A DNA stretch of 64,000 nucleotides from NCBI GenBank assembly GCA_964489545.1, contig CAZAZE010000003.1, positions 249,527-313,526 on the forward strand, given 5' to 3'. The position numbers and the translations under genes were made by a program. Shown here one piece after another: positions 3,546 through 54,560 of the stretch. Numbering within the stretch: position 1 is the first letter of the stretch; every line of letters starts with the position of its first letter. The notes below the pieces were generated by a model that was not told the origin of the DNA, made no database searches, and saw nothing but the letters and a program-made list of their open reading frames with translations. Source of the stretch: an uncultured Bacteroidales bacterium (lineage in GTDB: Bacteria > Bacteroidota > Bacteroidia > Bacteroidales > JAGOPY01).

Positions 3546-4787
3546 TTATTCATACCTCAAAGCCTCGATCGGACGTATGGCGGCGGCCTTGCGTGCCGGC
3601 ACAAAGCCGGCCAGCATGCCCGACACCACCATGACGACTGTGGCGCCGATGGCCACGCGGACGTCGACCGAGGGGTTTTTAAAGAACGTATCCGCCGACT
3701 CGAACATGGGCGAGACCAGTTCCAGCAGGCCGACGCCCATCACCAGGCCGATGTAGCCGGCAAAGGCGGTGATCAGCACCGACTCCATCAGGATCAGGGT
3801 GATGACCGACCAGGGCGTGGCGCCCATGGCCTTGCGGATCCCGATCTCCTGGGTCCGCTCCTTCACCACGATCATCATGATGTTGCTCACGCCAACCACC
3901 CCGGCGATGATGGTCCCGATGCCGATGATCCAGATAAACAGCCGGATCGAAGCGAACAGCGACAGGAAGCGCTTGAACTCCTCGATGTTGTTGCGCACAT
4001 ATATTGCACGCTGGTCTTCGGGATCGAAACGATGGAGCTGTGCCAGCGTCTGGCGGATCTCTTCCGTCATGGCCTGGCTGGTCTCCACGTCAATCTCCTC
4101 GGTAACGATGCTCAGGTTAAAGATGCGGTCGCCAAAGTTGTACACCCGCTGCGCGGTGGAGATGGGTATGTAGACCCGCTGCATGTCGCGGTCGCCGCCC
4201 ACGTCGTTGAACACGCCAACCACCTTGAACGGAATCCCGCTAACCTGGATGAACTTGCCGATGGGGTTCTCGCCCTTGAATAAGCCGTCGCGCACCAGGG
4301 TACTGATGACCACCGTTTTCCGGTAATCGTTGATGTCTTCTTCGTTGATATACCGGCCTTCCACTATGTCGACTGTTTCATAATACCCGTATCCCGGGTG
4401 GCAGGCGATGATGTCCCAGTTGCCGAATTCCTTTTTGTACGAAATCGTGTTGTTCTGCCACACCATCAACCGGCTGCTGATCTTGTCGATGTTGGGAATG
4501 TCTTTTTTGACGATATCATAATCCTCGTTGGTGAACTGTATGGTGCGACCGGATTTCAGTCCTTTATACGCCACGCTGGTCTGGCCGGGATTGACCCAGA
4601 TGGTGTTGGTGGCGTCGCCTTCAAACTCTTTCCTGACGCCGTTCTCCAGTCCGTACCCGCTGCCGAGCAGGATCATGAGCATGAAGATCCCCCAGGCCAC
4701 GCTGAATCCGGTTAGGAAGGTGCGCAGCTTGTTCTTCTTCATCGTTTCGAAGATCTCCTGCCATTTATCTCCGTCAAAAATGCCCAT
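3546..4787 (-). CDS. ABC transporter permease (MacB/FtsX family)
   Basis: LRTFLTGFSVAWGI, GVSNIMMIVVKERTQEIGIRKAMGA, RPIEALR; paralog of 2139-3410. Confidence 0.92.
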   Translation of the reverse strand: MGIFDGDKWQEIFETMKKNKLRTFLTGFSVAWGIFMLMILLGSGYGLENGVRKEFEGDATNTIWVNPGQTSVAYKGLKSGRTIQFTNEDYDIVKKDIPNIDKISSRLMVWQNNTISYKKEFGNWDIIACHPGYGYYETVDIVEGRYINEEDINDYRKTVVISTLVRDGLFKGENPIGKFIQVSGIPFKVVGVFNDVGGDRDMQRVYIPISTAQRVYNFGDRIFNLSIVTEEIDVETSQAMTEEIRQTLAQLHRFDPEDQRAIYVRNNIEEFKRFLSLFASIRLFIWIIGIGTIIAGVVGVSNIMMIVVKERTQEIGIRKAMGATPWSVITLILMESVLITAFAGYIGLVMGVGLLELVSPMFESADTFFKNPSVDVRVAIGATVVMVVSGMLAGFVPARKAAAIRPIEALRYE

Positions 4788-5526: not shown

Positions 5527-6993
5527 TTATTCCAGGGTGATGGGTTTTCCCATATAAAAATCAAGGACGGTGGTGGTGTAAATAAACCGGTATTTGGCCT
5601 GCAGCAGGTCGGATTCCGCAGCGGTCAGGTTCTTCTTCACCTCGTTGTATTCCACGGCGGTGACCATTCCCACGTCCAGCTTTTGTTCCGAATATTTGAA
5701 GGCTTCCTTCTGAGCAAAGACCTTCTTTTGGGAAGCGGTAAAATTCTTCAGCGCGGCGACCGCATCGGCGTATGCCTGCTGAATATTTTTGTCAAGATCC
5801 AGCTTTGCCTGGCGCAGGTCGAGATCGGCCTGTTCGTGCATGATCTTGGCCTGGGATATGGCCGTGCGGACCTGCCAGCCGTTGAAGATCGGGATCTGGA
5901 GGCTCAGCTGGAGGCTCCGGTTCTGGTTATCGGTCCATTGTTCCCCCCAGGGTATGATCTCGCTGCGGGTGAACTGCTGGCTCACAAGCGTGACCGGTTC
6001 CAGGGTGTTGGCCGTAAAACCGGCATTTTCATAATACACAATTTCCGGGTCGAAGCCTTCGGTGGCGGCGCCGGAATAACCGGTGGCCCAGGTGCCTGAG
6101 AAGCTCAGGGTTGGACTGAGGTAGCCGCGGGCGATGGAAACGCCTTTGCGCGCGCTTTCAACGCGCAGTTCGGCGCTCTTAATCTCAGGACGCTGCAGCA
6201 GGGCCGTCTGGTACACGTCGCCGGGGGTTAGCACCACCTGGGGCGCCTCGATCGGCTTAAGCTCAGGAACGTCTATCCGGAAATCTTTGGAGTAGGGGAG
6301 GTCGATCAGTTGCTGGAGACTGAGGAAAGAAATGATCAGCCTGTTTTCCGCTTCGACAATCTGAAGCTCTTCCGTTGCCAGTTGGGCTTCAATGTTGAGC
6401 AGATCGCCGCGGGCCAGCGTCCCCGCCTCAACCATCTTCTCCATCCGGTTAACCTGCTGCTGAGTGATCTCATATTGTGCTTTCGCCACGGCCAGGAGTT
6501 CCTGGTTGAATAAAATGTCAAGATAATAGGCGGCCACGGTGAGGGAAATGTCGTCCATCATCTTGTCGAGATCGTACTGAATCGCCGCATAATTAAGCTT
6601 GGTCTGGTTCAGTTCGTTGATCTGGCGCAGTCCCTGGAACAGGTTGAGCTGTGTCCCCAGGTAGAAGTTGTTCGACTGCACCCGGGTGGTGGCGAACTGG
6701 TTGGTGTAGCGGTCGATCGTCTGCCCCCAGTTGTAGCCGTGGGTAGCGCCCCCGTTGAGGTCGGGAAGCATGATCAGATAGCTTTGCAGCAATTGGGCTT
6801 TCTGGTTTTCGACCATCAGGACCTGTTTCTGGACGTTGATGTTGTTGTCCAGGGCGTAGTTGATGCAGTCTTCCAGCGTCCAGGCTTTTTCCTGGGCGGA
6901 TGCAGCCAGGAGCCCGAGGGAAGCCACGACAGTGAACGCCAGCCTGACAATAAAATTCAGCCTGGTTTTTTGGTTAATGCTTTGTCTGTGCAT
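5527..6993 (-). CDS. TolC family outer membrane efflux protein
   Basis: Signal peptide, WTLEDCINYALDNNINV start, duplicated helical repeats, QIPIFNG, C-terminal LDFYMG; heads the exporter operon. Confidence 0.9.
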   Translation of the reverse strand: MHRQSINQKTRLNFIVRLAFTVVASLGLLAASAQEKAWTLEDCINYALDNNINVQKQVLMVENQKAQLLQSYLIMLPDLNGGATHGYNWGQTIDRYTNQFATTRVQSNNFYLGTQLNLFQGLRQINELNQTKLNYAAIQYDLDKMMDDISLTVAAYYLDILFNQELLAVAKAQYEITQQQVNRMEKMVEAGTLARGDLLNIEAQLATEELQIVEAENRLIISFLSLQQLIDLPYSKDFRIDVPELKPIEAPQVVLTPGDVYQTALLQRPEIKSAELRVESARKGVSIARGYLSPTLSFSGTWATGYSGAATEGFDPEIVYYENAGFTANTLEPVTLVSQQFTRSEIIPWGEQWTDNQNRSLQLSLQIPIFNGWQVRTAISQAKIMHEQADLDLRQAKLDLDKNIQQAYADAVAALKNFTASQKKVFAQKEAFKYSEQKLDVGMVTAVEYNEVKKNLTAAESDLLQAKYRFIYTTTVLDFYMGKPITLE

Positions 6994-10284: not shown

Positions 10285-10346
10285 AACCGCAGAGGTGCAG
10301 AGGCGCAGAGATTTTTTTCACTTTGCGTCTCCGCGCCTCCGCGGTT
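10285..10346. repeat. Inverted pair of short tandem-repeat arms with no ORF
   Basis: AACCGCAGAGGTGCAGAGGCGCAGAG (10285-10310) vs CTTTGCGTCTCCGCGCCTCCGCGGTT (10321-10346); 9-bp period; 21/26 complementary. Confidence 0.75.
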
Positions 10347-12828: not shown

Positions 12829-12922
12829 CTCCGCGGACCTCCGTGCCTTCTCTGTGTGTCTCCGTGTTATTCATTATTTTTTTACACGGAGATACACGGA
12901 GGTTTCACGGAGGACCACGGAG
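12829..12922. repeat. Inverted pair of CTCCGTG tandem-repeat arms with no ORF
   Basis: Left arm 12829-12867 (four CTCCGTG-like units), right arm 12884-12922 (four CACGGAG units); 31/39 complementary around a 16-nt AT-rich loop. Confidence 0.8.
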
Positions 12923-13040
12923 CGCGTATCGGTATTGCCAGGCTGACTTTTCAGCATTCCATAAACTTTTTTAACTTTGTTTAAAGTCTGACAGATAATT
13001 AATCCGGGCTTTTAAACGTTTAATTGAAAACCTCCTTCCC

Positions 13041-45133: not shown

Positions 45134-46060
45134 GTGAACATTTATCATCATATCGACCTCTTCCAGCCCGTCCGCAACCCTGTGGTGAGCGTGGGCACCT
45201 TCGACGGAGTGCACCGGGGGCACCAGGAGATCTTCCGGATCATGACCGAAGAAGCCAGAAATTGTGATGGAGAAACCGTTGTGGTAACTTTTTACCCGCA
45301 TCCCCGGCTGGTCATTCACCCCGACAGCCGCAACCTCAGGTTCATCAACACCCAGGAGCGCAAGTACGAGATCATCCAGCGCAGCGGGATCGACCACCTC
45401 ATTGTGATGCCGTTCACCCGGGAATTCGCCAACCTATCGGGGGCGGAATTCGTGAAACGCTTCCTGGTCGACCGGATCAGAACGCATAAACTGATCGTGG
45501 GCTACGACCATCATTTCGGTAAAGACCGCCTGGGCAGTTCCATCGAGCTGCGCGGGCTGGGAAAGATGCACGGATTCGACGTCAGGGAGGTGCCCGCATT
45601 GTCCGTCGACGGGATATCGGTCAGCTCCACCAAGGTCAGGGATGCGTTGAACCGGGGCGATATCCGCCTGGCCAACATGCTGCTCGGCTATGATTACTCG
45701 ATCTCTGGGAAAGTGGTTTACGGAAACCGCATCGGCCGCACACTGGGATTTCCCACGGCCAACATCGAGCTGGAAGACGAATACAAGCTGATCTCTGCGG
45801 TCGGCGTCTACGCGTGCAAAGTGGATCACCACGGGGTGATCTACAAAGGGATGGGCAACATCGGCTATCGCCCCACCATCGACAGGGGCAACCTGACCAT
45901 CGAGGTGAACATTTTTGATTTTGACCAGGAGATCTACGGCGACCGCATCATCATCTATTTCCTGGAGCGGATCCGCGACGAAGTGAAATTCGACAACCTG
46001 GCGGCCCTGCGCGAACAACTGATCATCGACCGGGGAAGGGTGCAGGAGATACTACGTTAG
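45134..46060 (+). CDS. ribF: Bifunctional riboflavin kinase/FAD synthetase
   Basis: GTFDGVHRGH, VGYDHHFG, SSTKVR, GRTLGFPTAN, NIGYRPT. Confidence 0.96.
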   Translation: MNIYHHIDLFQPVRNPVVSVGTFDGVHRGHQEIFRIMTEEARNCDGETVVVTFYPHPRLVIHPDSRNLRFINTQERKYEIIQRSGIDHLIVMPFTREFANLSGAEFVKRFLVDRIRTHKLIVGYDHHFGKDRLGSSIELRGLGKMHGFDVREVPALSVDGISVSSTKVRDALNRGDIRLANMLLGYDYSISGKVVYGNRIGRTLGFPTANIELEDEYKLISAVGVYACKVDHHGVIYKGMGNIGYRPTIDRGNLTIEVNIFDFDQEIYGDRIIIYFLERIRDEVKFDNLAALREQLIIDRGRVQEILR

Positions 46061-46113
46061 TTCCAGGGTTTCAGGGTTCCAGGTTCCAGAGTTCCAGGTT
46101 CCAGAGTTCCATA
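46060..46113. repeat. Tandem array of 7 units (GTTCCAGG-like, 7-8 bp), downstream arm of cassette 1
   Basis: gttccagg gtttcagg gttccag gttccaga gttccag gttccaga gttccata. Confidence 0.92.
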
Positions 46114-46120
46114 GTTATTC

Positions 46121-46510
46121 TTATTTGTATTTTCTGCCCTTTAATTCGGTCTCTTTCAAGTATTTGATTAGTTTATTTAAAGACCTGATAATTTCTAAAG
46201 ACTGTTCATTTAACTCCTGGAAACGATTGGTTTCCAAATACAACAGACGTGCTGCAATAATCAGCTGGCAGCGCAATTCTCCACAGGATCCTTTGGCAAT
46301 ATGAAGAAAATTAAGGAATTCTTTATTACCATCTCTTTCAAAACCTTCAGCGATATTAGATGCAATTGAAATAGCTGACTTTCTGACCTGATTGGTTAGT
46401 ACATAATCTTTAGAAAATGGGCCACGGCTAGTCTCATGGTAAATTTGTGTCGTTAAATCAATGGATTTCTGCCACACCTCCATTTCTTCGAATCGTTTAA
46501 ACGTGCTCAT
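46121..46510 (-). CDS. Four helix bundle protein (TIGR02436/PF05635 IVS-protein family)
   Basis: FEEMEVWQKS, LTNQVRKSAISIASNIAEGFER, FLHIAKGSCGELRCQL; visibly AT-rich. Confidence 0.92.
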   Translation of the reverse strand: MSTFKRFEEMEVWQKSIDLTTQIYHETSRGPFSKDYVLTNQVRKSAISIASNIAEGFERDGNKEFLNFLHIAKGSCGELRCQLIIAARLLYLETNRFQELNEQSLEIIRSLNKLIKYLKETELKGRKYK

Positions 46511-46601
46511 AGTGATAAATTATTTTTATCAGTTAATTGCATTTTGACTCAAAAAATACCCGGTTGTTAATAAAAATACCCAGCTTGCTCAGAAAGAAAA
46601 C

Positions 46602-46680
46602 TCTGGAACTATGGAACTGTGGAACTGTGGAACCCTGAAACCCTGGAACCCTGGAACCTGGAACCCTGGAACCCTGGAAC
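46602..46680. repeat. Tandem array of 10 units (CCTGGAAC-like), upstream arm of cassette 1
   Basis: tctggaac tatggaac tgtggaac tgtggaac cctgaaac cctggaac cctggaac ctggaac cctggaac cctggaac; reverse complement of the 46060 array units. Confidence 0.92.
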
Positions 46681-46682
46681 TC

Positions 46683-47150
46683 TTACCTCTTCCTGACAAT
46701 CAGTCCGACCTGCATGATCCCGGCGAGATCGGCCTGCGACATGGCGCTGGAAACTTCGATGCGGCAGATGCCGGGTTCCGTGAAACGAAAGCCCTCCCAG
46801 GCCAGGAAATTCAAATCCCAGAGTGCGCCCATTCCGTTGCCCAGGTTTTTGCCTTCGGCGTCCTTCACCGGGATCCGGAAGCTGTTGTTCCGCGTTTCGC
46901 CCGAAGGAGTTTCCATGTTGAAATAAATGTCCAGGTTCCGGTAAGGGATATCGGTATGGTGGCGTATGGCCACAAGGATGTCGTATTCCGTGTCGATATC
47001 CTGGATTTCCACGTCAAACACTTTGACATCGAAGCGGTTCCACACCAGCCCCCGGGTATCGAGGTGTTCTTCGTAGATCTTTCCCGGGCTGCAGGCGCCC
47101 AGGATCAGCAGGAAAGGTATGATCAGGGATATCGTTCTCATCGTCTTCAT
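46683..47150 (-). CDS. gldH: Gliding motility lipoprotein GldH
   Basis: Lipobox LGAC; IAIRH-like LVAIRHHTDIPYRNL, GNGMGALWD, YRI-like CRIEVSSAM, GIMQVGLIV. Confidence 0.78.
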   Translation of the reverse strand: MKTMRTISLIIPFLLILGACSPGKIYEEHLDTRGLVWNRFDVKVFDVEIQDIDTEYDILVAIRHHTDIPYRNLDIYFNMETPSGETRNNSFRIPVKDAEGKNLGNGMGALWDLNFLAWEGFRFTEPGICRIEVSSAMSQADLAGIMQVGLIVRKR

Positions 47151-47254
47151 CAACAAAAATAATTCAAATCGGTTTAAAAACATGTTCAAGGATTATCCTG
47201 TCACCGGTCATTCTTCCGTTAATCATCCTTATTTTCGCCCTGAAATTGATTTCA

Positions 47255-47878
47255 ATGCCGGCGAAAAAGTATTACGTGGTTTGGAGCGGGCTCAGGCCGG
47301 GGGTGTATGAGACCTGGAAGGAGTGCGAGGCACAGATCCGGGGCGTGGACGGCGCCGTGTACAAATCATTTCCCGACCGGGAAAGCGCCGTTAAGGCCCT
47401 GAATTCGGACTGGAGGGAATATATCGGGAAGAAGAAGGAGGAGCCGGCGAAGAAGGTGCAGCGCGACCGGCAGAGCATACGGGAAAGTATCAGCGTCGAC
47501 GCCGCCTGCAGCGGGAACCCGGGCGTTCTGGAATACCGGGGCGTGGAAACCGCTACCGGCCGGCAGCTGTTCCACCAGGGCCCTTTTCCACTGGGAACTG
47601 TGAACATCGGCGAATTTCTGGCCATCGTGCACGCGCTGGCCTACCTTCAGAAATACGGCAGCAACCTGCCGGTCTATTCCGATTCACGCACTGCCATCAA
47701 ATGGACCCGGGATAAAGCCATCAAGACCAATCTACCGAGAAACAGCAAAACGGAAGCTCTTTTTGACCTGGTCGACCGGGCGATCAACTGGCTGAAAATC
47801 CATGATTATCCCAATCAAATCTTAAAATGGGAAACGGACCGGTGGGGAGAAATCCCGGCGGATTTCGGGAGGAAGTGA
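47255..47878 (+). CDS. rnhA: Ribonuclease HI with an N-terminal hybrid-binding (viroplasmin-like) domain
   Basis: KKYYVVWSG...PGVYETW, SVDAACSGNPG, NIGEFLAIVHAL, YSDS, KWETDRWGEIPADFGRK. Confidence 0.93.
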   Translation: MPAKKYYVVWSGLRPGVYETWKECEAQIRGVDGAVYKSFPDRESAVKALNSDWREYIGKKKEEPAKKVQRDRQSIRESISVDAACSGNPGVLEYRGVETATGRQLFHQGPFPLGTVNIGEFLAIVHALAYLQKYGSNLPVYSDSRTAIKWTRDKAIKTNLPRNSKTEALFDLVDRAINWLKIHDYPNQILKWETDRWGEIPADFGRK

Positions 47879-47879
47879 A

Positions 47880-49235
47880 CTACCCTGTCGCCAGCCTGAC
47901 AGAGATATCAATTTTTATCATGAAATGCAGGCCGATGCCGAGGACGATCCTCAGGAACAGCAGCAGGGCCAGCATCATGGCCAGGTAGCCTATATTGATC
48001 TTCCTGACTTTTTTCACCTTCAGCAGGTTCAGCCTGGGTTTTACCCTGGGGTTGAAGAAGGGGGGAATGACGAGGAACATCATGCTGAAGAACATCAGGG
48101 TTTCGTAAGGATATTCAAATCCCCGGGGCAAGCGGAGCAGCAGCATGATCACGGTTCCGAGGAACCAGGGGATGAGCATCTGCAGTAAGAAAAACGCGGT
48201 CCGGTTTTCCGGCTTGATCCGGTTGAGGGAGTCGGAGGTTTCCAGGATCTTTTCCGCGGAATAATAGCCAATCAGGCCCAGGACAAATAATGAGATGATG
48301 GAGAACATGAATTTGAAGGCCGTATTCATGTACATCCATGCCGCCACATAGCCGAAGCCTTCAGAGGTGATGATGCCGCTGGGCAGCGCGCCGAAGAAAT
48401 GATTGAACAGGTGGAACGAGGTCCAGAGCACGAACAGCTTTTGCAATCCGATCAGCCGGCGGTGCTTGAATACCACCCTGAGGAGAAAAAGACCCAGGAA
48501 AAGGCAGAAAAACGGAGGGATGCCCGTTACGAGCAGGATATTGAACCGGTTCCAGAGCGTAGAATGATCGTTGAATTTCAGGTCATAGTAGTATAAGGTC
48601 GAATCCAGTCCGTAAACGGATGCGACCAGCATACTGGTGAGCCAGTAGAACAGGTAGACGAGGACATAAGTGGCCACGAAGATCAGCAGCGAGTTCACCA
48701 TAATGGTGAGGCTTCGGTAGAATTCGCTGCGCTGGGAGAACAGCGGTATTCTTTTGGCCCGGGCCTCTTCGCTTTCGGCGGAAATGGTGAAAAGTTTCTG
48801 CCCCAGGGAGCGGCCGGATTCCATTTTCCGGTATTCCTTCTGGTGTTTCCGGCGCATCTTGTTCTTGAAGCGTTCCTCCCGGCGGATTTCCCGGCGCTGG
48901 GCTCTTAGTTTGAAGTAATACCGGATGGACTCCGCAATGGATTTTTTTCGCCGGGGGTATGTTTCCTGCCCGCCATCAATGGGAAACTCAACCGGTTTTG
49001 TTTTTTCAGGCGAAGATGGAGTCTGCTTACTGATGGGGATTCCTTCCTGTGGATCAGGCTTGGTCTCGATGGAATGCTCCCTGTGTTCCTGGGGTTTTTC
49101 GTCCGGAAAGTGGATTCCGGGGAACGACGACCGGTGGGTTTTGTATTTATTGCGGCCCAGCAGCCGGTCCCAGAAACTCCTGCGGTGTTTGCGGCGCTTC
49201 GATGAACTGCGGTGGTGTTGGTCGGATCCGGCCAT
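47880..49235 (-). CDS. Hypothetical multi-pass membrane protein with a long basic/charged N-terminal region
   Basis: About 160 aa Arg/Lys/Glu-rich N-terminus, then about 7 hydrophobic segments; no family recognised. Confidence 0.6.
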   Translation of the reverse strand: MAGSDQHHRSSSKRRKHRRSFWDRLLGRNKYKTHRSSFPGIHFPDEKPQEHREHSIETKPDPQEGIPISKQTPSSPEKTKPVEFPIDGGQETYPRRKKSIAESIRYYFKLRAQRREIRREERFKNKMRRKHQKEYRKMESGRSLGQKLFTISAESEEARAKRIPLFSQRSEFYRSLTIMVNSLLIFVATYVLVYLFYWLTSMLVASVYGLDSTLYYYDLKFNDHSTLWNRFNILLVTGIPPFFCLFLGLFLLRVVFKHRRLIGLQKLFVLWTSFHLFNHFFGALPSGIITSEGFGYVAAWMYMNTAFKFMFSIISLFVLGLIGYYSAEKILETSDSLNRIKPENRTAFFLLQMLIPWFLGTVIMLLLRLPRGFEYPYETLMFFSMMFLVIPPFFNPRVKPRLNLLKVKKVRKINIGYLAMMLALLLFLRIVLGIGLHFMIKIDISVRLATG

Positions 49236-49310
49236 ATGATTGTTCTTCGCTATGGTTGATTTAAATTGTTTTACTTTAGCCGCAAACTTCTATCATTATA
49301 CTGGCGAAAA

Positions 49311-49901
49311 ATGAAAAAGTTTATCGAAGAGATCGGTAAAAGTATAAAAAAATACAAGCTGCATGTTCTCAAGGACGTCCTCATCTTTGTGATCATCACG
49401 CTGACCATTCATTATTCTTACAGATACTGGGCCAGGAAACAATACTGGCCCGTGACCTCTGTAATGAACGCATCACATGAATTCATGTCCCAAAAAGTGT
49501 ATGACCAGAGTACATGGCTGATCGATAATTTGCTGGGTATTCCCATAACAGTGGACGAGACGGGGCGTGTGATCTATTTTGAAAACAACGGATTTATCGG
49601 TATCAACCACAGTTGTTCAGGGCTAAAGCCCATCCTGCAGTTTGTCTTGCTGATGCTGCTTTTCCCCGGGCCCTGGAGGCATAAGGCCTGGTTCATCCCA
49701 ATGGGTGTAATGCTGGTTCATTTAACCAATCTATTCAGGATCTCGGGCCTGGCTGTCGTGACGATCACCGTGCCGCAATACTGGGATTTCGCACACGACA
49801 ATATCTTCCGGCCGTTTTTTTACGTGGTGATCTTTTTACTGTGGGTATGGTGGGTGGAGCGATTCAGGAGCAAAGCTCCACGCCACCTTAACGAAGGGTG
49901 A
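49311..49901 (+). CDS. Exosortase/archaeosortase family protein
   Basis: INHSCSGLK (catalytic Cys), TNLFRI (Arg), AHD (His); multi-TM. Confidence 0.82.
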   Translation: MKKFIEEIGKSIKKYKLHVLKDVLIFVIITLTIHYSYRYWARKQYWPVTSVMNASHEFMSQKVYDQSTWLIDNLLGIPITVDETGRVIYFENNGFIGINHSCSGLKPILQFVLLMLLFPGPWRHKAWFIPMGVMLVHLTNLFRISGLAVVTITVPQYWDFAHDNIFRPFFYVVIFLLWVWWVERFRSKAPRHLNEG

Positions 49902-50814
49902 AGGTAGTATGCCCGATGATCGTGTTCTCACAGAAAATATCAACATGATATAAGCCCGCCATCATCTCCTGGTTCGTATATTCTTTCTTCCAATAAAGGC
50001 AAAGATCCATGGACTGGTTTTCATAATTGATCGTCTCCATGATGGAGTATTGCAGCAATTCGCCCTGGTATTCGAAGGCATAATCGTCGAGCCGGCCTTT
50101 GACCAGGATTTCCTGGTCAGGACGGGCGATGCGGATGTACACGTCTTTTCTGCCCGGCGCTGCGATCTCATTCTCACCGATGGTGAAGCATATTTTGACC
50201 TGGTCGGTCCGCTGCACTTTGTCTGTTTCCACTTCCTTATCCCCGCCGCTGCGTGAGCGGATGCCCGTGGCTTTCATGTTGACCGCTCTCAGCTGGGCGG
50301 CAATCTCCACCTTGCCCGATAGAACCTCCCGGTCTTTCTCGATTTCCTCTTTTTCTTTTTTCAGATCTTTCAGATCCTTCCGGATGGCCACGTTTTCCTC
50401 AGTAAGTGCGGCGTTGACCCGGTAGAGGGAATCCATCTGCCGGACGTACCCCTGGGCGATCACCTGGAGCTGGCCCAGTTTCTTCTTCACTTTGTAATAC
50501 TCCCATTCCGTATCGAGCAGCCGGCGGATCTCTTTGGCATTGGCCTGAATCAGGCTGTCCTTGACCATCAGCGTATCCGACAGCCTGCCGTATTCGGTTT
50601 TCACCTTTTCATGCTCCACCAGGAGCGAATCCAGTTCCAGCTGCAATTCGGTCCGTTGTTGTTCTTTCTCGGCCAGGAGGCCTTTCAGGTTGCTCCGGGT
50701 TTGCATCAGGATGATGATGAGCGCGATCACCACGATGGCCAGAACCGCCGCGATGGCGGTCAGGGTGGTGTTTGAGCGGCCGCGTGCCTTGTTATCCGAT
50801 GAGGTTTGTTCCAT
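49888..50814 (-). CDS. Membrane-anchored coiled-coil protein, hypothetical
   Basis: One N-terminal TM, long heptad-rich coiled coil, C-terminal beta domain (VKICFTI, YHVDIF). Confidence 0.65.
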   Translation of the reverse strand: MEQTSSDNKARGRSNTTLTAIAAVLAIVVIALIIILMQTRSNLKGLLAEKEQQRTELQLELDSLLVEHEKVKTEYGRLSDTLMVKDSLIQANAKEIRRLLDTEWEYYKVKKKLGQLQVIAQGYVRQMDSLYRVNAALTEENVAIRKDLKDLKKEKEEIEKDREVLSGKVEIAAQLRAVNMKATGIRSRSGGDKEVETDKVQRTDQVKICFTIGENEIAAPGRKDVYIRIARPDQEILVKGRLDDYAFEYQGELLQYSIMETINYENQSMDLCLYWKKEYTNQEMMAGLYHVDIFCENTIIGHTTFTLR

Positions 50815-50910
50815 AAACCGGTGATTTACTGCAAAAATAGTAAAAAATGCAACCGGATTCCAGTGAATCGGTTGCAAGGGACGAATTGAATAATCGAAAT
50901 GGAGCGGTTC

Positions 50911-52083
50911 TTATTTCAGATGATCTGGTACTATTTCCCGCAACCTCTCCATAGCCATCTCCAGCGTTTGCCGCGGACAGCCGATGTTCACGCGCTGAAA
51001 GCCTTCACCTCCCGGGCCGAAAACCGTGCCATCCACAAAACCCAGTCCGGCTTTATGGATGAGCAGGCGCTTCAGCTCATCTGCCGGCAGATTCCATTCC
51101 CGGAAGTCGAGCCAGAGCATATAGGTGGCTTCCGCCGGACTGACCCTGATCCCAGGGATGTTACGGGAAATGTAATCCATCACGAACCGGACGTTCCCCT
51201 TCAGGTACTCCATCAGTTCTTCAAGCCATGGGTCGCCGTAGCGATACGCCGCCTCCGCAGCAGTGATCCCGAAGATATTTGCGCTCAGGTGCACCCTTTC
51301 TTCTGCAGTTTTGAACCGTTCGCGGAGTTTTTCATCGGAGATGATGATGGACGAGGAATACAGACCGGCCAGGTTGAAGGTCTTGCTCGGGGCGATGCAG
51401 GTAATGGTGTTCCCGGCGATCTCTTCCGACAGCGTGGCGAGCGGGATATGCCGGTGCGGATCCAGCACCAGGTCGCAGTGAATTTCATCGCTCACGATCA
51501 GCACGCCATGCTCTAAGCCCTTCGCTCCGAGCCACTCCAGTTCTTCACGGCTCCAGCAGCGGCTGACGGGATTATGCGGGTTGCAGAGGATCATCATTTT
51601 CGCCCCGTCGCGCATCTTCCGCTCCAGGTCTTCAAAGTCGATGGAATACACCCCGTCGCGCTCCGCCAGCTGGTTCAGGACCAGCTCACGCCCGTTCTTT
51701 TCGACGCAGGTGAAAAACGGGAAATACACCGGCGGCTGGATGATGATCCGGTCGCCGGGCTCGGTGAAGGCCTGCACGATCACGTTCAATCCCGTCACCA
51801 CCCCGGGACTGAACAGGATCCAGTCTTTTTCAATGGCCCAGCCGTGGCGGCGTTTTTGCCAGCCGATGACCGATTCGTAATAGCTTTCCGGGATGATGGA
51901 GTACCCGAACACGGGATGCTCTGCGCGCTGGCGGATGGCTTCTGCAACAAAGGGCGGCACCGCAAAATCCATGTCCGCCACCCACATCGGGATCACATCC
52001 TCCCGGCCGAAATAAGTTTTGCGCAGGTCGAACTTGACGCAATTCGTCCCGGCCCGTTTTATGGGTTGATCAAAGTTGAACAT
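50911..52083 (-). CDS. patB: PatB/MalY family PLP-dependent C-S lyase/aminotransferase
   Basis: True start MFNFDQP at 52083; IPMWVADMDF, LCNPHNP, SDEIHCD, APSKTFNLAG, ATYMLWLD, RVNIGCP. Confidence 0.88.
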   Translation of the reverse strand: MFNFDQPIKRAGTNCVKFDLRKTYFGREDVIPMWVADMDFAVPPFVAEAIRQRAEHPVFGYSIIPESYYESVIGWQKRRHGWAIEKDWILFSPGVVTGLNVIVQAFTEPGDRIIIQPPVYFPFFTCVEKNGRELVLNQLAERDGVYSIDFEDLERKMRDGAKMMILCNPHNPVSRCWSREELEWLGAKGLEHGVLIVSDEIHCDLVLDPHRHIPLATLSEEIAGNTITCIAPSKTFNLAGLYSSSIIISDEKLRERFKTAEERVHLSANIFGITAAEAAYRYGDPWLEELMEYLKGNVRFVMDYISRNIPGIRVSPAEATYMLWLDFREWNLPADELKRLLIHKAGLGFVDGTVFGPGGEGFQRVNIGCPRQTLEMAMERLREIVPDHLK

Positions 52084-52093
52084 ACTGAAAAGA

Positions 52094-52213
52094 GACTGTA
52101 GGACGGTAGGACGGTAGGACTGTAAGACTGTAGGACGGTAAGACTGTAGGACGGTAAGACTGTAGGACTGTAGGACGGTAAGACTGTAGGACTGTAAGAC
52201 TGCTGGACTGCAG
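52094..52213. repeat. Tandem array of 15 x 8 bp (GACKGTAR), upstream arm of cassette 2
   Basis: Units gactgtag, gacggtag, gactgtaa and gacggtaa; the last two are degenerate (gactgctg, gactgcag). Confidence 0.95.
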
Positions 52214-52288
52214 CACTTCAAGGAAAGATATTAACAGACCGGGTATTTTTTGGAATTTACCGGATAAACCGGTATAAAATGTCTTTTT

Positions 52289-52660
52289 ATGAAGTTCACT
52301 AATCATGAAGAATTAGAAGTCTATAAACTGGCTTTTGAATCAGCCATGCGAATTTTTCATCATTCAATAAAATTTCCAAAGGAGGAAAAGTATTCGCTCA
52401 CCGATCAAATGAGGAGGTCTTCCCGATCCGTTTGTGCGAATGTTGCAGAAGCTTTTTACAGAAGAAAATACCCTAAAAACTTTTCCTCCCATTTGTCTGA
52501 TGCAATTGCTGAGGCTGCTGAAACGCGCGTATGGTTAAACTTTTCTTATTCCTGTCACTATTTATCTGAGGACGAAACAAACAATCTTCTTGAAACCTAC
52601 ACCAAAATAATTGGGAAACTGATAGTTATGTATAATCAATCAGACAAATGGCAGATATAA
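52289..52660 (+). CDS. Four helix bundle protein (TIGR02436/PF05635 family)
   Basis: HEELEVYKLA, FPKEEKYSLTDQMRRSSRSVCANVAEA, AETRVWL; visibly AT-rich. Confidence 0.92.
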   Translation: MKFTNHEELEVYKLAFESAMRIFHHSIKFPKEEKYSLTDQMRRSSRSVCANVAEAFYRRKYPKNFSSHLSDAIAEAAETRVWLNFSYSCHYLSEDETNNLLETYTKIIGKLIVMYNQSDKWQI

Positions 52661-52663
52661 ATC

Positions 52664-52719
52664 CTACCGTCCTACAGTCTTACCGTCCTACAGTCCTACT
52701 GTCCTACAGTCCTACTGTC
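52664..52719. repeat. Tandem array of 7 x 8 bp (YTACHGTC), downstream arm of cassette 2
   Basis: ctaccgtc ctacagtc ttaccgtc ctacagtc ctactgtc ctacagtc ctactgtc; five units are exact reverse complements of units in the 52094 array and two differ by one base. Confidence 0.95.
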
Positions 52720-54466
52720 AATGCGCCGGCCCGATCACCTTCAGCTTGTCGCCGGTCTGTTCGACGATGCCGCGCAGGAACCACTCCGGGTAGCCGGGCT
52801 GTTCCACCTTGGGCGCGTGGTACTTGTAGCCTTCGGGGACTTCCGTCGCCGTCTTGATGTTCCCGTCCATGAAACGGGTGAACAGGTGCCCGTAGAACTT
52901 CTTCCAGTCCATGACGGCCGTGTTCCCTGCCGAAACGGAATACTGGGTGAGGTATTCGACGGCTTTCTGCGGGTCGGTCTTGTAGAACTCCTGTGCGGCC
53001 GCATCGATCTGTTTCACGGTCTCGATGAAGTTGGCCTCGTCGGTCTGCTGTTTGACGTGGATTTCCGGGTGGATGTAGGAATAGCGGGTATAGGCCAGGT
53101 TGGAGATCTGGTTAAAGACCCAAAACGCGGCGTCGTCGACGAACTCCATCATGGAGCCATAGCCCGTGGCCATTTTATCCGGCGCCTGGGTCATGGAGCA
53201 GTACATGGGCATAAGGAGGCTGCTGGAAGCGTCGTCGACGGCGAACCAGAAGATGCCGCCGATCGGGTCGGGCAGCCAGGAGCGTGACTGGGCCAGGAAC
53301 CAGAAGCCGGTCTGCTGGGTGGCGGTGGCGCGTTCGTTGCAATAGGTCACGCCGTCGACCTTCCAGGTGAGCGGGCGCCAGCGGTAGGGCTTGCCGAACG
53401 GGCCGGCCCCTTCGTCTTTCGACATATCCAGCGGCGTTTCTTCCAGGTGGTCGCGCATGAAGTTCATCACTTCATGCAGGTCAAGGAGGTGGTCGGGCCT
53501 GATCCAGAGCGGCATGCGGTTGGTGGCGTAGCCGTTGGCGTTCGGGCTGCCGTCGGCGAAGGTCGCCTCGTGTTTGATATGGCCGCTGGCGTAATCAAAG
53601 TATTGTTCCATCTCCTTGTTGATGGACTTGAAGAACGACCATACCCGGATCTCGCAGAAGCGGGCTGCGCTGAAATCCACCGGGGCATATGTGTCGGAGA
53701 AGCTGAACTCGGCGTCTTTGCCGTTGAAATAGCCTTTTTCACGGGCGAAGGTAATGACGTCGTCGGCATAGAAACACTCCACTTCCGGGGCCATCAGCTT
53801 GCTGCGCTGGCTGAACTTAACGGCTTTCTTCTTGTCGCCCACCGGGAAGGTCGTGATGCGCGCCTGGTTGGCGTGGGCGGAAACGTAACCGTCGGGCACT
53901 TTCAGGGCCACCCATACGGCGCCTTTCTGGCCTTCGCCTTTTCCGATCATTTCAAAGATCCATACCTCGTTCTTGTCGGCGATGGAGAACGATTCGCCCG
54001 AGCTGGCGTATCCGTAGTCATTCATGAGCTCAGTGATCACGACCATCGCTTCGCGGGCCGTTTTGGCGCGCTGCAGGGCGATGTACATCAGGCTGCCGTA
54101 GTCCATGATGGCGCCCGGCTGGCTGCCCAGCTCCTGGCGCCCGCCATAGGTCGTTTCCCCGATGGCCACCTGGTGCTCGTTCATATTGCCGATCACGTTG
54201 TAGGTCTCGGCGGCCTGCGGGATCTGGCCAAGGAATTTGCCCGTGTCCCACTCATAGACGTCCAGCATGCTGCCGGCGGGCCATTTCTGGGCGGGCCAGT
54301 GGTACAGCTCGCCGTATAAAGTGTGCGAATCTGCGGCGTAGGTGATCATCACCGAACCGTCTTTCGAAGCGCCTTTGGTCACAAGAAAATTGGTGCAGGC
54401 AAAAGTTTGCATTCCTGCCCAGGAAGTCAAAAGAAAGGCTAAAGCCAGGGCTAGTCTTTTTTTCAT
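52718..54466 (-). CDS. Peptidase family C69 dipeptidase
   Basis: Signal peptide then CTNFLV (N-terminal nucleophile Cys), GNMNEHQVAIGETT, GESFSIAD, HANQARI. Confidence 0.9.
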   Translation of the reverse strand: MKKRLALALAFLLTSWAGMQTFACTNFLVTKGASKDGSVMITYAADSHTLYGELYHWPAQKWPAGSMLDVYEWDTGKFLGQIPQAAETYNVIGNMNEHQVAIGETTYGGRQELGSQPGAIMDYGSLMYIALQRAKTAREAMVVITELMNDYGYASSGESFSIADKNEVWIFEMIGKGEGQKGAVWVALKVPDGYVSAHANQARITTFPVGDKKKAVKFSQRSKLMAPEVECFYADDVITFAREKGYFNGKDAEFSFSDTYAPVDFSAARFCEIRVWSFFKSINKEMEQYFDYASGHIKHEATFADGSPNANGYATNRMPLWIRPDHLLDLHEVMNFMRDHLEETPLDMSKDEGAGPFGKPYRWRPLTWKVDGVTYCNERATATQQTGFWFLAQSRSWLPDPIGGIFWFAVDDASSSLLMPMYCSMTQAPDKMATGYGSMMEFVDDAAFWVFNQISNLAYTRYSYIHPEIHVKQQTDEANFIETVKQIDAAAQEFYKTDPQKAVEYLTQYSVSAGNTAVMDWKKFYGHLFTRFMDGNIKTATEVPEGYKYHAPKVEQPGYPEWFLRGIVEQTGDKLKVIGPAH

Positions 54467-54520: not shown

Positions 54521-54560
54521 AATCCGTGATAAATCTGTGAAAATCTGAGTAATCTGTGGC
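54521..54560. repeat. Four 10-bp tandem units (AATCYGWG core), single arm
   Basis: aatccgtgat aaatctgtga aaatctgagt aatctgtggc. Confidence 0.65.

Follow-up and report, generated by a model that had tools for sequence, protein, structure and literature searches.

A 64,000-nt stretch of contig CAZAZE010000003.1 from an uncultured Bacteroidales bacterium, referred to here as the window, contains two small genes coding for four-helix-bundle proteins of the PF05635 / TIGR02436 family, each of which is enclosed by two arrays of short tandem repeats. These two gene-and-array units, termed elements A and B in the following, are the subject of this analysis. An earlier note on this DNA had described four inverted 8-bp arrays around two four-helix-bundle open reading frames (ORFs), and its coordinates, arrays and family assignments were all reproduced: Tandem Repeats Finder (TRF) calls four arrays of 8-bp period in the window at the same positions, and hidden Markov models return the same family. 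The components of the two elements are as follows:

46059..46116, minus strand: element A 3' (downstream) arm, period 8, 7.5 copies, TRF unit AGTTCCAG, the reverse complement of the 5' arm
46121..46510, minus strand: element A gene, coding for a 129-aa four-helix-bundle protein of PF05635 / TIGR02436
46550..46573, minus strand: element A leader motif TTATTAACAACCGGGTATTTTTTG, putatively promoter-like, inside the 88-nt leader 46511-46598
46599..46680, minus strand: element A 5' (upstream) arm, about 10.4 copies of the sense 8-mer GGTTCCAG, recovered by TRF, from the sequence, by RNA folding and by an inverted-repeat scan
52094..52210, plus strand: element B 5' arm, about 14.6 copies of GACTGTAG, with the variants GACGGTAG and GACTGTAA
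52230..52252, plus strand: element B leader motif ATTAACAGACCGGGTATTTTTTG, inside the 78-nt leader 52211-52288
52289..52660, plus strand: element B gene, coding for a 123-aa four-helix-bundle protein of PF05635 / TIGR02436
52662..52719, plus strand: element B 3' arm, about 7.2 copies of TCCTACAG, the reverse complement of the 5' arm

Read along the strand of its own gene, the upstream array is (GGTTCCAG)n in A and (GACTGTAG)n in B, and the downstream array is its reverse complement, beginning 4 nt (A) or 1 nt (B) after the stop codon. Both elements occupy tiny intergenic spacers of the host, with ribF, gldH, patB and a C69 dipeptidase gene as their neighbours. Element A lies between the convergent genes ribF and gldH, where the stop codon TAG of ribF (46058-46060) overlaps the first unit of the 3' arm and the 5' arm ends about 2 nt from the stop codon of gldH. 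At element B, the dipeptidase stop codon (52718-52720) overlaps the end of the 3' arm, and the ATG of patB, on the other strand, is 10 nt from the 5' arm. With two overlapping stop codons and gaps of about 2 and 10 nt, the arrays are located, as had been claimed, at or within about 10 bp of host gene boundaries. The ORFs and leaders of the elements have a GC content of 34-41% (35-38% in the gene of element A), against 53-64% in the host flanks, or overall about 37% against about 57%.

When the window is scanned for inverted repeats (arm length 20 nt or more, loop length up to 900 nt), only elements A and B are returned, with arms of 40 and 58 nt. Predicted RNA folds pair the arms of both, at -213.8 kcal/mol (z = -7.9) for A and -224.2 kcal/mol (z = -10.2) for B. 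A two-unit pattern, searched across the window with up to 3 mismatches, matches 11 times for A and 20 times for B, against 0.71 and 0.06 expected. All but one of these matches fall in the element's own arrays, and this search found no dispersal of either unit elsewhere in the window. We conclude that the inverted-array pattern at A and B is not due to chance, and that the two are, as first described, independent and self-contained units of a gene and its inverted arrays.

Both encoded proteins are full-length members of their family, although only 31% identical to each other. They score 121.7 (A) and 102.6 (B) bits against PF05635 (E-values 2e-35 and 1.7e-29; cutoff 33.8) and 123.6 (A) and 90.7 (B) bits against TIGR02436 (cutoff 24). 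Relatives in the PDB include 2RLD and 2GSC (Xcc0516, 4e-17 for A); the latter was deposited as five chains and has been called a homopentamer (PMC4990558). The family is large, with 37,200 clusters at 50% identity (E-values up to 1e-3). Since dN/dS, the ratio of nonsynonymous to synonymous divergence, is 0.04-0.12 in pairs with unsaturated synonymous sites, the family proteins are under purifying selection and, judged by this measure, functional. PF05635 is the only domain detected in the element proteins, with no nuclease, recombinase, Y1/HUH or transposase domain, and a domain scan of the neighbouring genes found no transposase, integrase or reverse transcriptase adjoining the elements. Likewise, the proteins match no PADLOC defence-system model at E-values up to 0.01, and a tblastn search of 50,697 phage records returned no match.

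A profile built from proteins A and B and ten homologues yielded 80 loci (L001-L080) on contigs sampled at one genome per species, in records labelled as more than 15 phyla. The 84 PF05635 ORFs of these loci and the two in the window form a census of 86 ORFs, around which arrays with a period of 6-10 nt were recorded. An array is present upstream of 57 (66%), downstream of 60 (70%) and on both sides of 47 (55%) of them, compared with 14.5%, 12% and 4.5%, respectively, of 200 control genes from the same loci. Array density is 1.31 per kb within 200 nt of PF05635 genes and 0.10 per kb elsewhere, a 13-fold difference. Arrays are thus far commoner around PF05635 genes than around control genes, and the architecture belongs to the protein family, in agreement with the earlier note. 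The array period is 7 nt in about three quarters of cases and otherwise 8 or 9 nt, and it is equal upstream and downstream in 46 of the 47 elements with both arrays. In 32 of these 47 the upstream unit is the reverse complement of the downstream unit to within one edit, against a null of 3.8% obtained by pairing sides between different elements; a direct orientation of the two units was seen in only five. When the upstream flank is aligned locally with the reverse-complemented downstream flank, 61% of the elements reach a value of at least 30, versus 2.5% of 277 control ORFs (p = 3e-25). The same layout occurs on complete replicons of isolates, namely a Nostoc plasmid with (GGGGAAA)n arms and a Riemerella plasmid with (AGGTTCAA)n arms.

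The typical arm has 4.6 units (about 33 nt) on both sides, an apparent modal copy number that is biased by the detection limits of TRF. There is no systematic asymmetry, as the upstream array is longer in 23 elements and shorter in 22; a longer upstream array, proposed earlier as a shared trait, is thus a local feature of the window elements and no rule of the family, and the same is true of the leader of 75-90 nt proposed alongside it. Across the family the median distance from the upstream arm to the ATG is 28 nt, hardly enough for a promoter, and the downstream arm usually starts at the stop codon or within about 10 nt of it. The intergenic spacers in which these cassettes settle are very short, and most cassettes read in the sense direction within co-directional strings of genes. 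Co-orientation with the upstream host gene was found for 61 of 67 (91%; controls 76%, p = 0.008) and with both neighbours for 54 of 67 (controls 59%, p = 0.003). Median gaps measure 75 and 52 nt, and the arrays occupy these spacers.

Both in inheritance and in transfer, the gene stays together with its two repeat arms. About 63% of the protein pairs that are at least 60% identical have a repeat unit in common (to within one edit), versus 2% of the pairs below 50% identity (Mantel p ~0.0005), so that the predicted co-variation of repeat unit with protein clade is borne out. Some of the pairs that share a unit come from contigs with different phylum labels, as with AGTGCTG in L027, L034 and L035. 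The closest homologues of protein A (64-67% identity) are all found between sufS and sufE, in cassettes whose GTTCC(A/G)G arms reach from the stop codon of sufS to the start codon of sufE. The arms themselves are dynamic, with identical proteins having arms of different copy number on two contigs (L162 and L164).

The 70 repeat units collected are non-random in composition, with GTT in 35 (10 expected), AGT in 31 (12 expected) and GTTC in 16 (2.3 expected). These counts point to an ancestral unit close to A(A)GTTC, in a sample that is phylogenetically biased toward relatives of protein A. In a comparison of two sufS-sufE cassettes (L162 and L167), the PF05635 ORFs differ at 35% of synonymous sites and the adjoining sufE genes, at 75%, approach saturation; the cassette at this site may have arrived after its hosts diverged, or codon bias may compress the value.

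Elements A and B are insertions, because the orthologous junctions of some relatives are empty and the GC content of the elements is foreign. The ribF-gldH and dipeptidase-patB junctions, both singled out in the earlier note as places for a check, are each empty in some relatives. Among relatives with a RibF that is 74-81% identical, the order ribF> <gldH rnhA> is kept, including in those without an element. The ribF-gldH junction is empty in eight of them, with a gap of 0-40 nt; it has an ORF-less hairpin in two, with GTTCCA units as in element A, one arm only in two, and other 7-mer arrays in others. The dipeptidase-patB junction is empty in L173 and has ORF-less arrays in L171 and L175, and L171 additionally has a different, complete PF05635 cassette one junction upstream (400-1050), with about 10 units of CTGTTAAA on each side. 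On a RibF tree, which is poorly resolved, the states of the ribF-gldH junction are scattered and do not separate gain from loss. At the ribF-gldH junction of L085/L086 (2615-2845) we also observed two back-to-back arrays, TTCCAGG x8 followed by TTCACYG x ~21, with no ORF between them. Repeats without a PF05635 gene are likewise present in the window itself:

10288..10345, no strand: ORF-less tandem-repeat hairpin, CGCAGAGG x3, a 14-nt loop and the complement; intergenic, at the 3' end of a gene; fold -38.5 kcal/mol, z = -7.5
12829..12924, no strand: ORF-less tandem-repeat hairpin, four ~10-mers CTCCGTGnnn, a 16-nt loop and the complement; intergenic, past the 3' end of a gene; fold -56.8 kcal/mol, z = -10.1
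54521..54558, no strand: lone tandem array, CACAGATTnn x ~4, just upstream of the dipeptidase gene, at the same junction as the additional cassette of L171

The hairpins at 10288 and 12829 look like either ORF-less counterparts of the cassettes or terminators built from repeats. Such structures bring up a reading in which the arrays are independent, pre-existing repeats (terminator-like hairpins or the short intergenic repeats discussed below), and PF05635 genes merely insert into them or are retained inside them. ORF-less hairpins and lone arrays are indeed common in these genomes, as at 10288, 12829 and 54521 in the window; arrays are seen in 12-14.5% of control-gene flanks, and they occur at orthologous junctions without the ORF. 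However, the unit follows the protein clade and not the host, even between contigs labelled as different phyla, and the cassettes of related proteins at the suf and ribF sites have a GTTCC unit at host sites that are unrelated. The match of upstream and downstream periods in 46 of 47 elements also speaks against this explanation, which we consider the least probable of those weighed here.

Of 46 arrays that lie at a distance from the PF05635 gene, 12 are built from the same unit as the local cassette, where the null is 2.8% (p = 3e-9). This result, which suggests seeding in trans, would suit a mobile element that acts at the level of DNA, with the inverted arrays being transposon-like ends that consist of several tandem binding sites in inverted orientation, or hairpins in single-stranded or cruciform DNA, that are recognized by a PF05635 multimer and cut and joined by an enzyme of the host or one acting in trans. 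The tracking of protein clade by the unit, the presence/absence polymorphism at orthologous sites and the spread of the cassette over many phyla, plasmids included, also agree with it, and the missing sense-strand G:U bias described below is what a constraint on DNA predicts. On the other hand, the protein is a 120-aa helical bundle that lacks nuclease, recombinase and HUH domains, a target-site duplication is not seen, and 7-9 bp is a short unit for a site of DNA binding. Nor would a purely DNA-level element be expected to favour the direction of host transcription, and the 64-kb window shows no dispersal of either unit. On balance we regard a DNA-level element as unlikely.

A further observation comes from a Burkholderiales operon (L076), in which (TCACGAR)n arrays are found at three successive intergenic junctions, in one orientation and just upstream of ribosome-binding sites (2817-2877, 3956-3992, 4363-4482 and 5666-5733), with a PF05635 gene at one junction only. 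Placed ahead of the ribosome-binding sites of other genes, these same-unit arrays favour a reading in which the protein is a domesticated, repeat-binding regulator, a TRAP-like pentamer reading about five tandem units in an RNA leader, with the arrays as operators that would serve in autoregulation at its own gene and in a regulon at other junctions. Strong purifying selection would be in keeping with this, as would a typical array of 4.6 units on both sides when set beside the five chains of the relative 2GSC, described as a homopentamer (PMC4990558). Moreover, a role in regulating translation has been suggested for the heptamer arrays that immediately precede start codons in Beggiatoaceae (PMC4679880). 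Yet the modal copy number is biased by the detection limits of TRF, arrays and genes are rapidly gained and lost at orthologous sites, and there is no leader between the convergent genes that flank element A. A regulator would also leave the inverted downstream arm without a role, and the foreign composition counts against it too. We therefore think it very unlikely that regulation accounts for the architecture.

Among known systems, the closest to these cassettes are the intervening sequences (IVSs) of ribosomal RNA. ORF-containing IVSs in 23S rRNA were reportedly described from Leptospira by Ralph and McClelland in 1993 (as cited in PMC3936711). They resemble the present elements in having terminal inverted repeats that form a stem, with an ORF of the PF05635 family in its loop, in lacking a transposase, and in the existence of short, ORF-less IVS hairpins beside ORF-bearing ones. 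The most instructive case is the IVS of Coxiella burnetii with its S23p ORF, which, like our cassettes, has tandem heptamers upstream of the ORF: RNase III has been shown to cut its terminal stem at the first of these (Warrier et al. 2016, PMC4990558), and the heptamers, GACAGAT x2-3, vary in copy number between strains (PMC4990558). The differences are in location, in the arms and in the state of the gene. The window elements lie between protein-coding genes and family copies mostly inside operons; the 23S rRNA helix that defines the location of an IVS is absent, and the stem of terminal inverted repeats with the ORF in its loop is present in the predicted folds. Searches with Rfam detected no rRNA in the 64-kb window or in any of the 80 family loci, and no Rfam family matches the element region at E-values up to 1, occurs in the window or adjoins any of the 80 family genes. 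Both arms here are explicit tandem arrays of 4-20 units, with a unit that co-varies with protein clade. Furthermore, the protein is under purifying selection, unlike the Coxiella S23p ORF, which is regarded by its authors as decaying (PMC4990558).

Diversity-generating retroelements (DGRs) include a protein, Avd, with a homologous pentameric four-helix-bundle fold. Avd binds an RNA stem-loop, and the DGR RNA (avd-TR-Spacer) has a long-range duplex that flanks the template (bioRxiv 10.1101/2023.10.23.563531). The elements themselves do not qualify as DGR modules: the Avd-specific models score below their cutoffs (NF033474 with 26.9 bits against 80, for B only; PF22296 with 24.9 against 40), and no reverse transcriptase adjoins the elements, the immediate neighbours of which are housekeeping genes, in an analysis that included no search aimed at template-repeat/variable-repeat pairs. 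REPtrons consist of RAYT (TnpA-REP) genes flanked by inverted repetitive extragenic palindromic (REP) sequences, with REPIN hairpins dispersed elsewhere. They share with our elements a single small gene bracketed by inverted repeats and ORF-less hairpin derivatives elsewhere in the genome. On dispersal of the flanking repeat the picture is mixed, with an enrichment of same-unit arrays near some PF05635 elements and with each window unit confined to its own element. Unlike REPtrons, the elements encode no Y1/HUH transposase, their arms consist of tandem arrays of short units and not of a defined palindrome of 20-40 nt, and different cassettes in one genome use different units.

The short tandemly repeated repetitive (STRR) sequences of cyanobacteria are intergenic heptamer arrays. 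Similarly, TAACTGA repeats occur in Beggiatoaceae, cyanobacteria and Bacteroidetes (PMC4679880). Both kinds resemble our arrays in their intergenic 7-nt units, frequent ending at start codons, variable copy number and broken assemblies, and differ in that their descriptions mention no connection with PF05635 genes or with an inverted partner. Several other assignments were rejected. An insertion sequence or miniature inverted-repeat transposable element is contradicted by the lack of a transposase domain and of visible direct repeats at the boundaries, in a comparison of filled and empty sites limited by a host divergence of about 25%, and a CRISPR array by units that are 8 nt long and contiguous, in place of 25-40-nt repeats with unique spacers. 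Integron gene cassettes have a single attC at the 3' end only and stand in an array next to intI; the elements have repeat arms on both sides of the ORF, and their immediate neighbours are not integrases, the rest of the window not having been searched for intI. A telomere-like origin, from linear DNA with terminal repeats, is at odds with the G-rich strand running 5' to 3' into the element at both ends, which is the opposite of telomeres.

The reading that we favour, and to which we give about even chances of being right, is that the elements are self-contained, horizontally spreading, selfish cassettes of the IVS type, located between protein-coding genes and severed at the repeat stem. Given their co-orientation with host genes and the filling of spacers by the arrays, most copies appear to depend on transcription read through from the host. 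A read-through transcript would hold both arms, which could pair into a duplex of 30-60 bp with the ORF in its loop. A duplex of this length is the canonical substrate of RNase III. By analogy with the homologous rRNA IVSs, RNase III would cut the arm duplex in such transcripts, and the cassette RNA would be severed from that of the host, limiting the damage to the latter. The 7-9-nt units, being prone to slippage, would let the arms grow, shrink and drift quickly, and yet the arms would stay complementary, with the G-rich arm first and the C-rich arm second. The protein, probably a pentamer, most likely binds its cognate repeat hairpin, as the analogy with Avd would have it, and may thereby aid the persistence or spread of the cassette. 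Decay would leave behind ORF-less repeat hairpins and lone arrays.

The polarity of the arms is a feature of the hairpins throughout the family, with G exceeding C in the 5' arm of 45 of 55 elements and C exceeding G in the 3' arm of 45 of 57. Since the repeat is inverted, this polarity is the same for transcripts of either strand, and it fits a constraint at the level of RNA. We speculate that it avoids the exposure of a C-rich, G-poor stretch that would attract Rho while the 400-nt loop is being transcribed.

The leaders of the window elements deserve separate mention. The motif ATTAACAGACCGGGTATTTTTTG of B is near-identical to TTATTAACAACCGGGTATTTTTTG of A, and TTATTAACAnnCGGGTAT is found in the suf-operon elements L162, L166 and L167. 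It consists of (T)TATTAACAnnCGGGTAT and then a stretch rich in T, some 45-55 nt ahead of the ATG, and is common to A and B in spite of the low identity of their proteins noted above. The shared motif looks like a promoter or regulatory site specific to the host lineage. The -7 box of Bacteroidetes promoters is TAnnTTTG. As the motif matches this consensus imperfectly and has no clear -33 TTTG, we did not assign it as a canonical Bacteroidetes promoter and call it promoter-like.

Several observations weigh against severed, IVS-type cassettes. The first is the comparison of G:U with A:C mismatches on the sense strand of 56 stems, which gave 76 G:U and 84 A:C (p = 0.58) and thus no G:U excess, in a test whose power is low as arrays turn over quickly; complementarity could therefore be kept at the level of DNA. 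The proposal of the earlier note that the arms form an RNA stem like that of an IVS is plausible, with the predicted folds, the Coxiella precedent and the co-orientation with host genes on its side; the flat mismatch test gives no direct sign of selection on sense-RNA pairing and speaks neither for nor against a function as RNA. Secondly, a promoter-like leader is kept in the window elements and their Bacteroidota relatives; because it lies internal to the 5' arm, an mRNA started there may miss that arm. Thirdly, element B is antisense to both of its neighbours. In addition, no direct repeat indicating a target-site duplication was found at the boundaries of filled and empty sites, in genomes that are about 20-25% divergent and with arrays that blur the edges. 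The same-unit arrays at the other junctions of the L076 operon are not accounted for by simple decay of cassettes. Finally, we know of no catalytic or mobility function of PF05635.

A wider version of the IVS-type reading, tentative and in our judgement doubtful, would have PF05635 cassettes form an unrecognized, very widespread class of autonomous elements, in which the pentamer reads its own repeat in a sequence-specific manner and RNA processing and spread alike act on the hairpin. This class would be the common source of rRNA IVSs and of short-period intergenic arrays and hairpins, such as STRR-like heptamers and octamers.

With regard to novelty, what is already known are the ORF-bearing rRNA IVSs, and what appears new is the package of gene and repeats outside rRNA and across phylum labels. 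In freely searchable full text, subscription literature excepted, we found no description of inverted tandem arrays around the PF05635 family outside the Coxiella IVS. The suggestion that the element is undescribed accordingly stands as far as the architecture outside rRNA is concerned, on which no paper was found, and has to be qualified by the known ORF-bearing rRNA IVSs with terminal inverted repeats. According to the authors of the Coxiella study, the origin, mobility and function of rRNA IVSs and of their ORF have been open questions since the early 1990s (PMC4990558). With none of the 80 sampled loci in rRNA, the gene-and-arm package in over half of the copies and the unit travelling with the protein, the IVS question now becomes testable.

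The arrays also bear on the annotation of genomes. The PF05635 family shows up as 'CRISPR-associated' in screens (PMC3936711, PMC10910872), these two CRISPR surveys merely recording PF05635 genes inside cas loci, and the arrays may explain this status. They may further break metagenome assemblies, as many of the carrier contigs are about 1 kb long and one (L081) ends 48 nt past the dipeptidase stop codon, where the window has a repeat arm. In gene calls they give spurious N-terminal extensions, as in patB, the longest ORF of which (50911-52221) reads through the array and acquires a repetitive N-terminus (VLQSYSLT...).

Two minor observations concern individual loci of the family. Flavo-1 RNA (RF01705) is found 1.5-3 kb from PF05635 genes in two loci of Flavobacteriia (L031 6982-7047 and L033 5839-5936), a proximity that is probably coincidental. 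In L074 (3579-4351), two PF05635 genes that are 96% identical stand in tandem and have the middle array in common, which is oriented like an upstream arm.

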